Source of the DNA: a virus
Taxonomy: Duplodnaviria; Heunggongvirae; Uroviricota; Caudoviricetes
Length of the DNA: 32,811 bases
Virus record (IMG/VR): IMGVR_UViG_2563366806_000002
Reading direction: 5' to 3' (one strand)
Shown: positions 1 to 32,811 of the stretch, piece after piece
Numbering within the stretch: position 1 is the stretch's first letter
Layout of the letters: each line of letters starts with the position of its first letter
The notes under the pieces: model-generated
What the model saw: only the letters and a program-made list of their open reading frames with translations
Databases searched by the model: none
What the model was told of the DNA's origin: nothing
Position numbers and translations under genes: made by a program

Positions 1-981
1 TCACACCGCCAGCCCGCCGCCAAGTGGGTTTAATGTCACCGCGTGTTGCAGGTAATCGGGGGCGAGGTGAGCATAAACCATCGTTTGCTGAATGCTCGCA
101 TGACCCAGAATCTGCTGTAACGCGATAATGTTACCCCCGTTCATCATGAACCAGCTCGCGAACGTGTGCCGGAGCACATGCGTAGCCTGCCCGCGTGGCA
201 AGTCTGGTTTAACCTGCCTGAGCCGTTCGCAGAAGTTTTCATAATCAACTTTGAACAATGGCCCGGTGTCACTGGTCTTGATCTCCTTCTCCAGCTCTGC
301 CGATATTGGAACCGTTCGCTTTTTCCCGTTTTTGGTTTTGAGGAACGTCACACGCCCATGGTTAACCTGCTCACCTCGCAGGGTGCTGCCTTCTCCCCAA
401 CGTGCGCCAGTGCTGAGGCATAACAGCGCCACGCGCCGATCATCGCCGGTCAGGGTATCCAGCAGCTTGCTGATCTCTGATTTGGCGAGATAGGTCATAG
501 CTGGCGGCGCTTCTTTCAGTGGTTCCAATCCCTTGCAAGGATTCTCCTTCCTGAACTCATCCAGCTTAATCAACGTGCTGAACATGCCGGAAAAACGGTA
601 TATATCCCGGTTGATCGTTGCGGCGCTGATCCCGTCATCCAGTCGTTGGCTACGGTGCCGGGCGATGGTGCGCTTATCAAGCCGGTTAACTGCTGGATCT
701 CCCAACGCCCTGATTGTCTTTTTCAGGTGCCGCTTTTCTATCTCACCATTTTCCTGAGTCTGCCCATATAGCAGCCACCAGGTATCTAACAACTCGCTCA
801 ACGTGCGGCGGTCTACGCTCGCGCCAAGCCATTCTTTTTTATCAGCGTTAGCTAATACATAACGCTCAAAAAGAACCGCCTCTTGTTTCTTTTCAAATCG
901 CCTGCGGATGCGTTTTCCATTACGCCCACGGGGCCATACGTCTACTTCATACTGACCACCCTCGAGCTTCTTAATCGACAT
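1..981 (-). CDS. int: P2-like tyrosine integrase (stop codon at 1..3)
   Basis: 326-aa ORF with tyrosine-recombinase C-terminal signature (HVLRHTFASW...GHASIQQTMVYAHL); sits at the prophage end, divergent from cox as in P2. Confidence 0.9.
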   Translation of the reverse strand: MSIKKLEGGQYEVDVWPRGRNGKRIRRRFEKKQEAVLFERYVLANADKKEWLGASVDRRTLSELLDTWWLLYGQTQENGEIEKRHLKKTIRALGDPAVNRLDKRTIARHRSQRLDDGISAATINRDIYRFSGMFSTLIKLDEFRKENPCKGLEPLKEAPPAMTYLAKSEISKLLDTLTGDDRRVALLCLSTGARWGEGSTLRGEQVNHGRVTFLKTKNGKKRTVPISAELEKEIKTSDTGPLFKVDYENFCERLRQVKPDLPRGQATHVLRHTFASWFMMNGGNIIALQQILGHASIQQTMVYAHLAPDYLQHAVTLNPLGGGLAV

Positions 982-29439: not shown

Positions 29440-30567
29440 ATGTTGGATGATGATGCGCGTTATTCGCCCCGCCCGGCGTTCAGTATTCAGATTGAGGGCA
29501 AGCAGCTCACCGCGCTGGATGACCGTTTGATCTCGTTGTCGCTGACGGACAATCGGGGATTTGAAGCGGATACGCTTGATCTCACGCTGGATGATTCAGA
29601 CGGACAGATCGTTATGCCATCGCGTGGCGCGAAGATTTCCGTTTCGCTGGGCTGGGATAATGACCCGCTGATATTTAAAGGACTGTACACCGTTGATGAG
29701 GTTGCGCACCGTGGCCCGCCTGATCAGCTCACAATCAGCGCCCGCAGCGCAGACTTTCGCGACACGTTCAACGTGAAGCGTGAATATTCCTGGCACGATA
29801 TTACCGTGGGCGATGTGGTTGCCAGTATCGCCAGCCGGTACGACCTGCGAGCCGGGGTGAGTGAGGAACTGGCGAAGATTGAGATCGATCACGCAGACCA
29901 GACCAGTGAATCAGATATCAGCTTTCTCACCAGAATGGCGGATATGCTGGGTGCGGTTGCCACCGTTAAAAATGGCATGTTGCTGTTCATCACGCCGGGG
30001 CAGGGCTTAACCCAAAGCGGTAAACCATTACCGGCGATCAGCATTGTGCGGGCCAGCGGCGATAAGCACAGCTTTAGCATTGCCGATCGTGATGCTTATA
30101 CCGGCGTTACTGCCTACTGGCTGGATCTAAATTTCGGGAAGAAGCCTGCCACCACGGTACAGACAAACACCCGCAGACGCCGCAGAACAACCCAGCCGAA
30201 GAAGCCGAAAGAACCCGCCTCAAGCAGCAAAGAAGGGGATTACATGGCAGGCGCGGAAGGCAACGTATTCGTGATCCGCAAGACGTTCAAAACCGAGAAG
30301 GCAGCGAAGCGGGCAGCGGCGGCGAAGTGGAGCCAGTTACAGCGTGGCGCGGCGTCATTCTCCATCACGCTGGCGCGGGGCCGGGCGGATTTGTACCCGG
30401 AACAACCGGCAAGCGTATCGGGCTTTAAGTCCACGATTGATAACGGTTACTGGACGATTACCCGATGTGTGCATGATATCGGCAGCGGCGGCTTTACCAC
30501 CTCGCTGGAGCTGGAAGTTAAGATCGATGAATGGACGGCTGAGGCGGGTGACGAATCAACGGGTTAA
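29440..30567 (+). CDS. D: Tail protein D (P2 gpD-like, late control D family)
   Basis: ATG 29440 with RBS GAGGGA; N-terminus MLDDDARYSPRPAFSIQ is gpD-like (track ORF begins upstream at TTG 29269). Confidence 0.9.
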   Translation: MLDDDARYSPRPAFSIQIEGKQLTALDDRLISLSLTDNRGFEADTLDLTLDDSDGQIVMPSRGAKISVSLGWDNDPLIFKGLYTVDEVAHRGPPDQLTISARSADFRDTFNVKREYSWHDITVGDVVASIASRYDLRAGVSEELAKIEIDHADQTSESDISFLTRMADMLGAVATVKNGMLLFITPGQGLTQSGKPLPAISIVRASGDKHSFSIADRDAYTGVTAYWLDLNFGKKPATTVQTNTRRRRRTTQPKKPKEPASSSKEGDYMAGAEGNVFVIRKTFKTEKAAKRAAAAKWSQLQRGAASFSITLARGRADLYPEQPASVSGFKSTIDNGYWTITRCVHDIGSGGFTTSLELEVKIDEWTAEAGDESTG

Positions 30568-30613
30568 GCGTTATACTTGACGTGATATTAACCAGCCCAG
30601 AGGAGGCCCGCGT

Positions 30614-30856
30614 ATGGCAATGCGCTGTCCTCGCTGCCGTGCAGTTGCGAAAACTCGTACCAGTGTAGAGTTGAGTGATTTAGTGCGACGCAGTTATCAC
30701 CAGTGTCAAAACATGTTGTGCGGCTACTGCTTTACCAGCATGACGCAAATAGACGAATCATTAAACCAGACTCAGCCAGTCCCCGGCGCGGTGGTTCCTC
30801 AAGACGTTTTCCCGCGAAGTCATCACGGCGAAGATCAGCTTAGTCTGGTGTTGTAG
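30614..30856 (+). CDS. ogr: Ogr/Delta-family zinc-finger late transcription activator
   Basis: CPRC...YHQCQNMLCGYCF matches the Ogr zinc-finger pattern CPLC...YHQCQNVNC. Confidence 0.85.
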   Translation: MAMRCPRCRAVAKTRTSVELSDLVRRSYHQCQNMLCGYCFTSMTQIDESLNQTQPVPGAVVPQDVFPRSHHGEDQLSLVL

Positions 30857-30870
30857 TTTCGAAGCAAGGC

Positions 30871-30900
30871 AAAAGCCTGCCGGACAGGCAGGCTTATTGT
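30871..30900. terminator. Bidirectional hairpin terminator between ogr and the convergent downstream gene
   Basis: AGCCTGCC-ggaca-GGCAGGCT stem, A-run on one side and T-rich on the other. Confidence 0.6.
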
Positions 30901-31622
30901 TATTGCAGTTCTTTCAGTTCAACAATCTTACCAGTGGCTATATCTACTTTAGCGGAAACGGTGTTTTTTACCGTTGCCCCAAGAGCATTTGCGCCACGGA
31001 ATGTTGTCACAAATACTGCATATGGTTTTTTGTCTTTCTCAAACATTAATTGATGGGTGGTTTTGATATGTTTGTAGGATGAGTCATCGTTCATCTGTTC
31101 TTTGATCGCGACCTCTAAGGGGTAGTAGACGCCGTTATAGTCGCTCAGCATTTCATCGAAATTATCAAAATTTATACGGTCAGAAAGAGATGTTGCATCG
31201 CGGGTAAAATCTGAGTAACACCAATCAAGCACTTGATCGAGGTGTAGTTCTTCCGATTTTCTATGAGAATATTCGCTTAGGCAGTTGTAGAAGTCATTAC
31301 GTGCAGATTCAGGGATCTTTTTAAATTTAACATACGAGTTAACAATTTCGCGTCTGTCTTCCTTATCGTTCTTAACTCTCCATTCCTTTAGTGATAAATC
31401 GGCGTATTTAAATTTTTCTTCTTTAATCGGTGGGCGTTCTTGAGCGTTGCTTGAGGTAGAAGGGCGTAAACTGGCCCCTATTGCAGCAACGACTAAGCAC
31501 ATTGAGAAGTAGAAAAGAGACGATTTTTTTCTGTTTGGCATGAAAACCCACTTTGGATTTATAAGCCCGATCCAGAAAGCGATACCGGCTATCGCTGCAA
31601 TGATAGTGATGATTTTTTCCAT
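30900..31622 (-). CDS. AT-rich membrane-anchored protein of unknown function (candidate cargo/moron)
   Basis: 240 aa; two N-terminal hydrophobic helices then a charged soluble domain; strong RBS GGAGGG; clearly lower GC than flanking DNA. Confidence 0.6.
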   Translation of the reverse strand: MEKIITIIAAIAGIAFWIGLINPKWVFMPNRKKSSLFYFSMCLVVAAIGASLRPSTSSNAQERPPIKEEKFKYADLSLKEWRVKNDKEDRREIVNSYVKFKKIPESARNDFYNCLSEYSHRKSEELHLDQVLDWCYSDFTRDATSLSDRINFDNFDEMLSDYNGVYYPLEVAIKEQMNDDSSYKHIKTTHQLMFEKDKKPYAVFVTTFRGANALGATVKNTVSAKVDIATGKIVELKELQ

Positions 31623-31800
31623 TGGATACCCTCCGTATTGAGGCGGGTATTATTGTCGATGGTGCTCAAAAACGGAACAGCCAAGCGCGGTGCGCCTGGC
31701 TGCTTCTTTGTCGAAGTGTAGTCAAAATGTAGACGAAGATTAGAATAAATCCTTTTATTCCATTGTGTTACTTGCTGGATTTCTTCACCATCCCTGTCTT

Positions 31801-31827
31801 CCCCCACATGATGTGGGGGTTTTTTTT
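31801..31827 (+). terminator. Strong intrinsic terminator (CCCCCAC..GTGGGGG then T8) upstream of fieF
   Basis: Perfect G/C-rich hairpin plus eight Ts read from sequence. Confidence 0.8.
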
Positions 31828-31908
31828 ATCCTCAATTTGCCTGCTGCTTAATGCATTGCAGATGATTTGCTTCCGTTATACTAGCGTCAGTTGATAGCGG
31901 GAGTATTT

Positions 31909-32811
31909 ATGAATCAATCTTATGGACGGCTGGTCAGTCGGGCGGCGATTGCTGCGACGGCGATGGCTTCGCTGCTATTGCTGATTAAAATTTTTGCATG
32001 GTGGTATACCGGGTCGGTGAGTATTCTCGCCGCGCTGGTGGATTCGCTGGTGGATATCGGCGCGTCGTTGACGAATTTACTGGTGGTGCGATATTCCCTG
32101 CAACCTGCCGACGATAATCACTCGTTTGGTCACGGTAAAGCTGAGTCCCTCGCGGCGCTGGCGCAAAGTATGTTTATCTCCGGTTCAGCACTATTCCTGT
32201 TTTTGACGGGTATTCAACATCTGATATCTCCAACACCGATGACAGATCCAGGCGTCGGGGTTATCGTGACAATTGTGGCGCTAATTTGTACGATTATCCT
32301 TGTCTCGTTTCAGCGTTGGGTGGTGCGCCGGACGCAAAGCCAGGCGGTGCGGGCTGATATGCTACATTACCAGTCTGATGTTATGATGAACGGCGCAATT
32401 CTGCTGGCGCTGGGGTTGTCCTGGTACGGCTGGCATCGCGCCGATGCTCTGTTTGCATTGGGAATCGGCATCTATATTTTATATAGCGCGTTACGCATGG
32501 GATATGAGGCGGTACAGTCATTACTGGATCGCGCATTACCTGATGAGGAACGGCAAGAAATTATTGATATCGTGACTTCCTGGCCGGGTGTTAGCGGCGC
32601 TCACGATCTTCGCACGCGGCAGTCAGGGCCGACCCGCTTTATTCAGATTCATTTGGAAATGGAAGACTCTCTGCCTTTGGTTCAGGCACATATGGTGGCG
32701 GATCAGGTAGAGCAGGCTATTTTACGGCGTTTTCCGGGATCGGATGTGATTATCCATCAGGACCCCTGTTCCGTCGTACCCAGGGAGGGTAAACGGTCTA
32801 TGCTTTCATAA
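31909..32811 (+). CDS. fieF: Cation-diffusion facilitator FieF/YiiP (ferrous iron / zinc efflux), host gene
   Basis: Translation from ATG 31909 ([54 protein letters not shown]...) matches enterobacterial FieF as recalled; stop at window end. Confidence 0.95.

Follow-up and report, generated by a model that had tools for sequence, protein, structure and literature searches.

Genes and features of the locus

The window, that is the whole stretch of 32,811 nucleotides analysed here, opens with an int gene at positions 1–981 (minus strand), which encodes a 326-aa tyrosine integrase with Pfam matches to Int_N (7.6e-32) and Phage_integrase (5.7e-19). Since the stop codon of int occupies positions 1–3, the left attachment site attL is located ∼175 bp to the left of the window. 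In ECONIH4 the same prophage, with 99.9% identity across the query, stands between cpxP and fieF. There the int copy is annotated as a phage integrase, adjoins attL and is transcribed towards it, the P2 gene order is complete and ogr is annotated as an ogr/Delta-like zinc finger. Taken as a whole, the prophage does not resemble Wphi in DNA sequence. Salmonella SEN4/SEN5 come closest among sequenced phages, with 41% coverage, and within the first 25 kb of the window only ∼1.75 kb matches phage phiT5282H in DNA sequence.

Towards the right end, the ogr-type late-gene activator (30614–30856, plus strand) is the last conserved phage gene before the right attachment site attR, as in P2 and Wphi, and has its own terminator at 30873–30895. 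It is followed by an ORF of 240 aa (30900–31622, minus strand), whose start is preceded by a good Shine-Dalgarno sequence (GGAGGG) and whose N-terminus is hydrophobic; the ORF belongs to phrog_3403 (E 4.4e-110), a family of unknown function, has no Pfam or PADLOC match, and is not part of the recombination site. This position is occupied by no gene in Wphi and by a cpdA-annotated gene in phiT5282H, so that the interval between ogr and attP is a variable cargo slot beside the attachment site.

The sole host gene visible in the window is fieF (31909–32811, plus strand), encoding a CDF cation-efflux transporter and recognized from the ORF list and genome matches; an earlier note on this DNA, made from the sequence alone, had already named it as such. 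The end point which that note gave for the junction, 31908, is the base preceding the fieF ATG. Upstream of the gene, 31831–31908 (plus strand) is unaltered host cpxP–fieF intergenic DNA, identical to empty sites; these 78 bp are unchanged at attR and are preceded by an intact host-type terminator. The latter, a copy of the Rho-independent terminator of cpxP and its small RNA CpxQ (31801–31827, plus strand), has an 8-bp stem, a 3-nt loop and a T8 run at 31820–31827. The underlying palindrome, CCCCCACAT-G-ATGTGGGGG at 31801–31819, is perfect (9/9) and was scored as a stem of eight pairs, six of them GC, with a 3-nt loop; RNA folding reproduces the same hairpin. Its assignment to cpxP and CpxQ, which the earlier note had offered as a possibility, agrees with a K-12-type empty site (L001), where the hairpin and T8 are found. 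Terminator-like sites are frequent in this region, with six in 30500–32000 versus 1.4 ± 1.1 in shuffled sequences.

The right boundary of the prophage

A megablast search of complete E. coli genomes with positions 31400–32100 separates two kinds of sequence. From 31786 rightward the query matches all 5426 genomes, and the match begins at query base 387 (window 31786) in all but 15 of them; 31400–31785 is found in only 15. Among the matches listed, 31786 is the start of host homology. The reciprocal search of the same 5426 genomes, with the K-12-type empty site L001 (cpxP, 148 bp and fieF) as the query, finds the cpxP–fieF site uninterrupted in 4592 genomes and split in 834 (15.4%). In six of six split-site genomes among the matches listed, the cpxP-side match stops at L001 position 1545, equivalent to window position 31830.

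The segment 31623–31785 shows no similarity to anything in the empty cpxP–fieF sites (∼4600 E. coli genomes with an uninterrupted site). It is the P arm of attP, phage DNA kept at attR. Its sequence lines up in the same register as the P arms of Wphi and eight other attR or attP junctions, and Enterobacter phage phiT5282H has an attP arm with 96% identity to 31702–31785. Collectively, this indicates, with a probability that we put at about 0.95, that 31623–31908 is the attR of a P2-family (Peduoviridae) prophage, inserted by its integrase in the CpxQ gene at the 3′UTR of cpxP. The right prophage boundary is fixed at 31786–31830, and fieF and its upstream region are left intact.

The boundary could also be sought near 31623, at the end of the 240-aa ORF, in which case 31623–31908 would be entirely host DNA, a longer strain-specific spacer, and the hairpin a resident terminator. 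The segment 31623–31785 is indeed non-coding and adjoins a host-type terminator, and a phage arm can be separated from a host spacer only through sequence comparison. That comparison, however, refutes a longer host spacer and leaves it a probability close to nil: none of the ∼4600 genomes with an uninterrupted site has 31623–31785, homology starts at 31786, the attP arm of a free phage genome matches 31702–31785, and the segment bears arm repeats matching those beside int.

Insertion at the 3′ end of cpxP, as the earlier note had suggested, is borne out by the cpxP and fieF genes that flank the same prophage in ECONIH4; in NA3664, the same prophage is likewise bounded by cpxP. The interval in which the note expected attR, 31623 to about 31830, holds both edges, with host homology from 31786 and the attL-side homology ending at the equivalent of 31830. 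An uninterrupted cpxP–fieF interval running on leftward in prophage-free relatives had been named as an argument against the junction. No prophage-free site continues leftward of 31786, where the sequence instead matches the phiT5282H attP arm (31702–31785), and since 31623–31785 is absent from empty sites the junction withstood this check.

The 45-bp core and the CpxQ gene

The left edge at 31786 and the right edge at 31830 together define an att core of 45 bp, CACCATCCCTGTCTTCCCCCACATGATGTGGGGGTTTTTTTTATC (31786–31830, plus strand), common to attR, attB and phage attP. It consists of CpxQ nt 17–58 followed by ATC. The expectation that attL lies beyond the window edge was right, but not the accompanying view that the core could therefore not be defined, as other genomes with the same prophage define it: the direct repeat sought at the other prophage end is present at the int end in ECONIH4 and NA3664, where it matches 44 of the 45 core positions and has one G fewer. 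A 20-mer quoted by the earlier note as preceding the hairpin, cttcaccatccctgtcttcc (31783–31802), is present, but its first three bases, ctt, are phage DNA and only the remainder belongs to the core.

The core of the window is 100% identical to that in the attP of Wphi (AY135739 and AJ245959), fiAA91-ss, phiT5282H and others, with 62 phage records in all. Several P2-like phages of Yersinia pestis and phages of Salmonella have the identical core as well; in sum, it occurs in ∼50 sequenced P2-like phages besides Wphi. In free phages it sits between ogr and int.

In the literature, CpxQ is a 58-nt, Hfq-dependent RNA that RNase E releases from the cpxP 3′UTR, with the seed at its 5′ end; the C11G mutation disrupts pairing with cfa, and U7 pairs with nhaB. 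In the K-12-type empty site L001, cpxP ends at 1475 and is followed by ...TTTTCCTTGCCATAGACACCATCCCTGTCTTCCCCCACATGCTGTGGGGGTTTTTTTTATCC... and then by fieF. If the last T of the T8 run is taken as nt 58, the 5′ end of the RNA reads UUUUCCUUGCC..., with U7 and C11 at their published positions, so that CpxQ corresponds to L001 1485–1542. Window positions 31786–31827 are CpxQ nt 17–58, including the terminator and the U-tail. The suggestion that the phage had entered ‘into or next to’ the cpxP 3′ end was correct as to location and can be refined: the insertion is inside CpxQ, from nt 17.

At attR the full 58-nt CpxQ is not present. The 5′ seed region (nt 1–16), which serves nhaB and cfa, is missing, and the 16 nt to the left are phage sequence. 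Also lacking are the promoter of cpxP and the context for RNase E processing: cpxP stands at the other prophage end, and the attR copy is preceded by a phage ORF on the minus strand. The window copy is an orphan 3′ fragment of CpxQ; the functional CpxQ of the lysogen is the attL copy, beyond the window.

Exact copies of the 42-nt RNA part of the core number 116 in ∼115 enterobacterial species-representative genomes, and at least 15 of these 116 matches are prophage junctions. The genera include Escherichia, Salmonella, Citrobacter, Klebsiella, Raoultella and Enterobacter, as well as Kosakonia, Kluyvera, Yokenella, Lelliottia, Mixta and Erwinia. The core is long and conserved because this 42-nt part is a functional small RNA, kept exactly in ∼115 species.

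ARAGORN found no tRNA or tmRNA in 30500–32811, and the core is not an att site of the tRNA/tmRNA type; such sites follow the same logic, but the target here is a small RNA. In Rfam, no CpxQ-named family was matched by the window region or by the intact K-12 locus, even with full-length K-12 CpxQ. The family RF02628 (Hrs1) scored 41.4 bits (E 1.8e-6; gathering score 56.4) against the complementary strand of K-12 CpxQ (L001 1470–1542, minus strand) and 25 bits, below the gathering score, against the attR fragment (31743–31827, minus strand). The Rfam scan otherwise returned only generic terminator look-alikes. Hrs1 (Hfq-regulated sRNA 1) may perhaps be a CpxQ homologue entered on the opposite strand.

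Anatomy of attP and attR

Alignments were made of 11 junctions on the phage side and of 11 on the int side. The junctions share one architecture, which reads from left to right as a GC-rich hairpin, two 7-bp repeats, an A/T-rich spacer, the core and a further repeat pair near int. The starts of the left repeats, at –69 and –58 relative to the core, are separated by 11 bp, and the second pair lies ∼85 bp beyond the core, beside int. In the window the left pair is formed by the direct repeats TGTAGTC (31717–31723) and TGTAGAC (31728–31734), both on the plus strand and at the positions where Wphi has its TGTGGAC pair. Their counterpart in the P′ arm, read at attL of ECONIH4, NA3664 and CAVP776, is TGTAGAC twice. 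Wphi and most other aligned phages have TGTGGAC at all four positions; TGTGGAC pairs of this P2/Wphi kind are absent from the window attR, which has TGTAGTC/TGTAGAC in their place. Following the paradigm of P2 and lambda, the arm repeats are presumed sites for the N-terminal domain of Int.

The A/T-rich conserved spacer (31743–31770) is a presumed bending-protein site. It contains the palindrome GAATAAA-TCCT-TTTATTC at 31743–31760 and the IHF-like motif TTCCATTGTGTTA at 31758–31770. The motifs AAATCC(T/A)TTT and ...GTTA keep their register in 10 of the 11 aligned junctions, L045 being the exception at this motif. Compared by eye on the alignment, the Wphi sequence TATCATCAGGTTA matches WATCAANNNNTTR at 12 of 13 positions, and the window copy has three mismatches. 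Here too, the P2 and lambda paradigm suggests that the spacer would be an IHF site.

The GC-rich hairpin, which is found in all aligned P arms, is represented in the window by a terminator-like inverted repeat at 31676–31704 (minus strand), with a 13-pair stem followed by TTCCGTTTTTGA. In the circular phage it is downstream of int, across attP, and may function there as a terminator. In the prophage it points leftward, just upstream of the 240-aa ORF. Integration parts it from int, and its placement recalls that of lambda sib.

The arm repeats go together with a motif in the integrase: among six integrases, LEGGQYEVDVWPRG is paired with TGTAGAC arms and LDDGRYEVDIRPRG with TGTGGAC arms, and as the six represent only two lineages, this pairing is a correlation rather than a test. 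Residue 16 (W versus R) is a candidate determinant of arm specificity, with two lineages sampled. Over Int residues 7–16, LEGGQYEVDVW accompanies TGTAGAC arms and LDDGRYEVDIR accompanies TGTGGAC arms (compared in L003, L017, L060 and L070). Two integrase lineages that share one core and differ in their arm repeats offer a natural system for following the separate evolution of arm and core specificity.

Strand exchange within the core

Two polymorphisms in the core, a loop base and a run of G, allow the crossover to be positioned. The loop base (window 31811, L001 1526) is A in the window, in 116 of 116 enterobacterial matches and in the attP sequences with a 100% identical core, and C in E. 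coli of the K-12 lineage; the predicted fold energy is the same with either base. Judged by this distribution, the K-12 C is a derived allele. A reading of the loop A as a phage-derived scar was rejected, given its presence in all 116 species matches and the derived state of the K-12 C. Two Wphi-class lysogens with C-type hosts and different prophages, AH21 and JKHS016, were read through from end to end; in each, the loop base at attL is A and that at attR is C. An attR query with C finds nine genomes at 100%, and four IMG/VR junctions are of this attR-C type. No perfect match to an attL with C occurs among the 261 genomes that share the corresponding P′ arm, the best being 99.5%, with one mismatch.

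The G run has five residues (G5) in the window attR, as in every empty site, and four (G4) at the int-side junction of three independent assemblies of the same prophage (ECONIH4, L002 34440–34490; NA3664, L205 350–391; CAVP776, L206 350–391). The attL of the window genome being outside the window, attL was read from these three assemblies, whose int differs from that of the window by at most 1 nt. With G5 in the attP of both Wphi and phiT5282H, a homopolymer assembly error was considered for the G4 at the ECONIH4 attL, and was rejected on its recurrence in the three assemblies. The related prophage EcPF16 (L207), with 89% DNA identity in int, has G5.

According to the two markers, everything from the loop to the right is of phage origin at attL and of host origin at attR, so that the exchange takes place left of the loop, in the interval 31786–31810; this mapping rests on two fully read Wphi-class lysogens together with aggregate BLAST identities, and for the window phage on one indel. 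By the same mapping, the terminator of attR, at least from the loop rightward, is host-derived. The side of the crossover is here mapped from natural polymorphisms, without experiments.

A 5-bp stem with a 7-nt loop is the geometry of the anticodon arm of tRNA. In this interval, attB reads AGACA-CCATCCC-TGTCT, with an inverted repeat of 5 bp enclosing 7 bp; RNAfold folds this sequence as the first hairpin of CpxQ, a candidate crossover structure that would resemble an anticodon arm. On the geometry of tyrosine-recombinase core sites and of anticodon arms, CCATCCC (31788–31794) is proposed as the overlap region, and it probably is. The symmetry of its flanks extends over 5 bp in attB and is good in the Wphi attP; it is restricted to CA/TG in the attP of the window phage.

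An exact repeat of 45 bp could in principle also permit RecA-dependent exchange, and one might regard the duplication as the footprint of homologous recombination, or as a transposon target duplication, with the element being an island. This is scarcely credible. Packaged genomes of free phages have this core between ogr and int, the prophage has the full P2 gene order with int adjoining attL, and arm-type repeats stand at fixed distances on either side of the core. Moreover, 45 bp far exceeds a transposon target duplication, and the polymorphisms show the polarity of a defined crossover.

Integration and consequences for CpxQ

In the mechanism that we propose, the attP of the free phage comprises a P arm that bears a pair of TGTAG(T/A)C repeats as well as the IHF-like spacer, the core, and a P′ arm with two TGTAGAC repeats beside int. 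An integrase with the core specificity of Wphi Int would recombine the attP core with the identical host sequence in CpxQ. Exchange occurs left of the terminator loop (31786–31810), probably in the CCATCCC loop of the first CpxQ hairpin. As all sequence 3′ of the point of exchange is also present in the phage copy, a complete cpxP–CpxQ–terminator unit is regenerated at attL; attR keeps the phage P arm, the core and the untouched region upstream of fieF. The terminator copy at attR, without the cpxP promoter and the CpxQ seed, would likely only insulate fieF from rightward transcription of the prophage. Given the terminator of ogr and the minus-strand orientation of the 240-aa ORF, it probably has little to stop.

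The G4 of the phage core bears on the regenerated gene. A G4 terminator stem has seven pairs versus eight with G5, and its predicted energy is –14.4 versus –17.4 kcal/mol. The core of the window phage itself being G4, the CpxQ terminator at attL of its lysogens is one G–C pair shorter. A wider reading joins this to other effects: lysogeny would alter CpxQ by making it a chimera, a C–int RNA would act as antisense, CpxQ/CpxP would be tuned, and integrases would have specialised on motifs of Hfq sRNAs. Taken jointly, these propositions are unlikely to hold. If they did, the CpxQ of a lysogen would be a chimera with a phage-supplied G4 terminator, at least from the loop to the U-tail; a constitutive C–int prophage transcript would run across attL, antisense into CpxQ and cpxP; the prophage could tune the output of CpxQ or CpxP; and P2-family integrases may have specialised on 5-bp stems with 7-nt loops in Hfq-binding sRNAs (cyaR, rybB and cpxQ).

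The 3′ copy of CpxQ at attR or attP might also be an expressed phage sRNA, a mimic or chimera transcribed from a promoter in the P arm, which would reprogramme envelope-stress targets or titrate Hfq. The copy retains the terminator and the U-tail, the usual Hfq contact, and a promoter-like sequence, TAGTCA-16-TAGAAT, stands upstream of the terminator at 31719–31746 (plus strand); in the literature, CpxQ is prominent in Hfq interactomes during lambda infection. Such a phage sRNA is nevertheless very improbable, because the copy is devoid of the CpxQ 5′ seed, and the would-be seed, 16–20 nt left of the core, is not conserved among phages with the same core. In addition, promoter-like matches are not enriched in a sigma-70 scan (two versus 2.4 in shuffles), and the one at 31719–31746 overlaps the arm repeats.

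Relation to Wphi and other attachment sites

Prophages between cpxP and fieF are on record. In the E. coli W genome, the site is given as ‘cpxP-fieF: Wphi1 (P2)’, beside P2-type prophages at ‘rybB ncRNA’ and ‘cyaR RNA’ (PMC3032704). The Wphi site is position 4104392 of MG1655, and L-413C has the Wphi core (PMC3448106). A prophage of O157 also lies between cpxP and fieF (PMC7609406), and Salmonella Infantis has a 31.7-kb insert at this place. In the literature consulted, an incomplete selection, we found no link of the Wphi core or att site with CpxQ.

On comparison of their sequences, the site in the window is the known Wphi insertion site, and its attachment system is a sister of that of Wphi with the same presumed core specificity. 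The two systems share the chromosomal site, the order ogr–attP–int, the number, spacing and distance of the repeats, and the AAATCC(T/A)TTT motif of the spacer. The core is identical over 45 of the 47 bp of the Wphi core, Wphi sharing a further GA with the host on the left. In contrast, the window Int is 67% identical to Wphi Int over its full length, the arm repeats are TGTAG(T/A)C versus TGTGGAC, the core of the phage is G4 versus G5, and the 240-aa cargo gene separates ogr from attP in the window phage. Closer in its attachment functions is phiT5282H (Peduoviridae, Novemvirus), with 97% identity in Int, a core that is the same save for G5 versus G4, and nearly identical P and P′ arms (TGTAGTC/TGTAGAC). 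The two phages differ in the gene beside attP. No published analysis of the phiT5282H att site was found.

The site also resembles those of P2 at cyaR and of P2-like prophages at rybB, as well as tRNA and tmRNA att sites, in that the core covers the 3′ part of a structured RNA gene. As in sRNA and tRNA sites, the core reaches the terminator, and integration rebuilds the gene at attL. The target differs, however: CpxQ is a 3′UTR-derived sRNA without a promoter of its own, not a free-standing gene. CpxQ joins the small RNAs whose 3′ ends act as phage attachment sites. Current understanding is not overturned by the findings at attR.

Frequency of the two classes and unusual junctions

The Wphi class is the commoner of the two in E. 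coli: a Wphi-class int is present in 790 genomes, 788 of them with a Wphi-class attR, versus 37 genomes with a window-class int, only three of these at ≥99% identity. Both classes together account for almost all of the 834 interrupted sites. Among viral contigs of IMG/VR, the core is found in 83, and the two arm classes stand at ∼45:13 on the P side. The boundaries defined here provide an annotation rule for the ∼15% of E. coli genomes, and for many other Enterobacteriaceae, with a P2-family prophage at this site.

A few junctions depart from the common pattern. In E. coli CAVP776 (L206, 300–391) and in Kosakonia oryziphila (L005, 5480–5700), the core is flanked left and right by phage arms, giving hybrid junctions that resemble attP. 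Each combines the P arm of one class with a P′ arm of the other; in CAVP776, the hybrid is with a neighbouring Wphi-class prophage. The hybrid junctions indicate tandem prophages at a single cpxQ site. Finally, in Citrobacter amalonaticus P55 (L038, 1047–2926), an attL core and an attR core with arms of the TGTAG class are only 1838 bp apart. The interval encloses ORFs of 339 aa and 154 aa and no integrase, which suggests either what remains of a prophage or a small cargo island left behind there.
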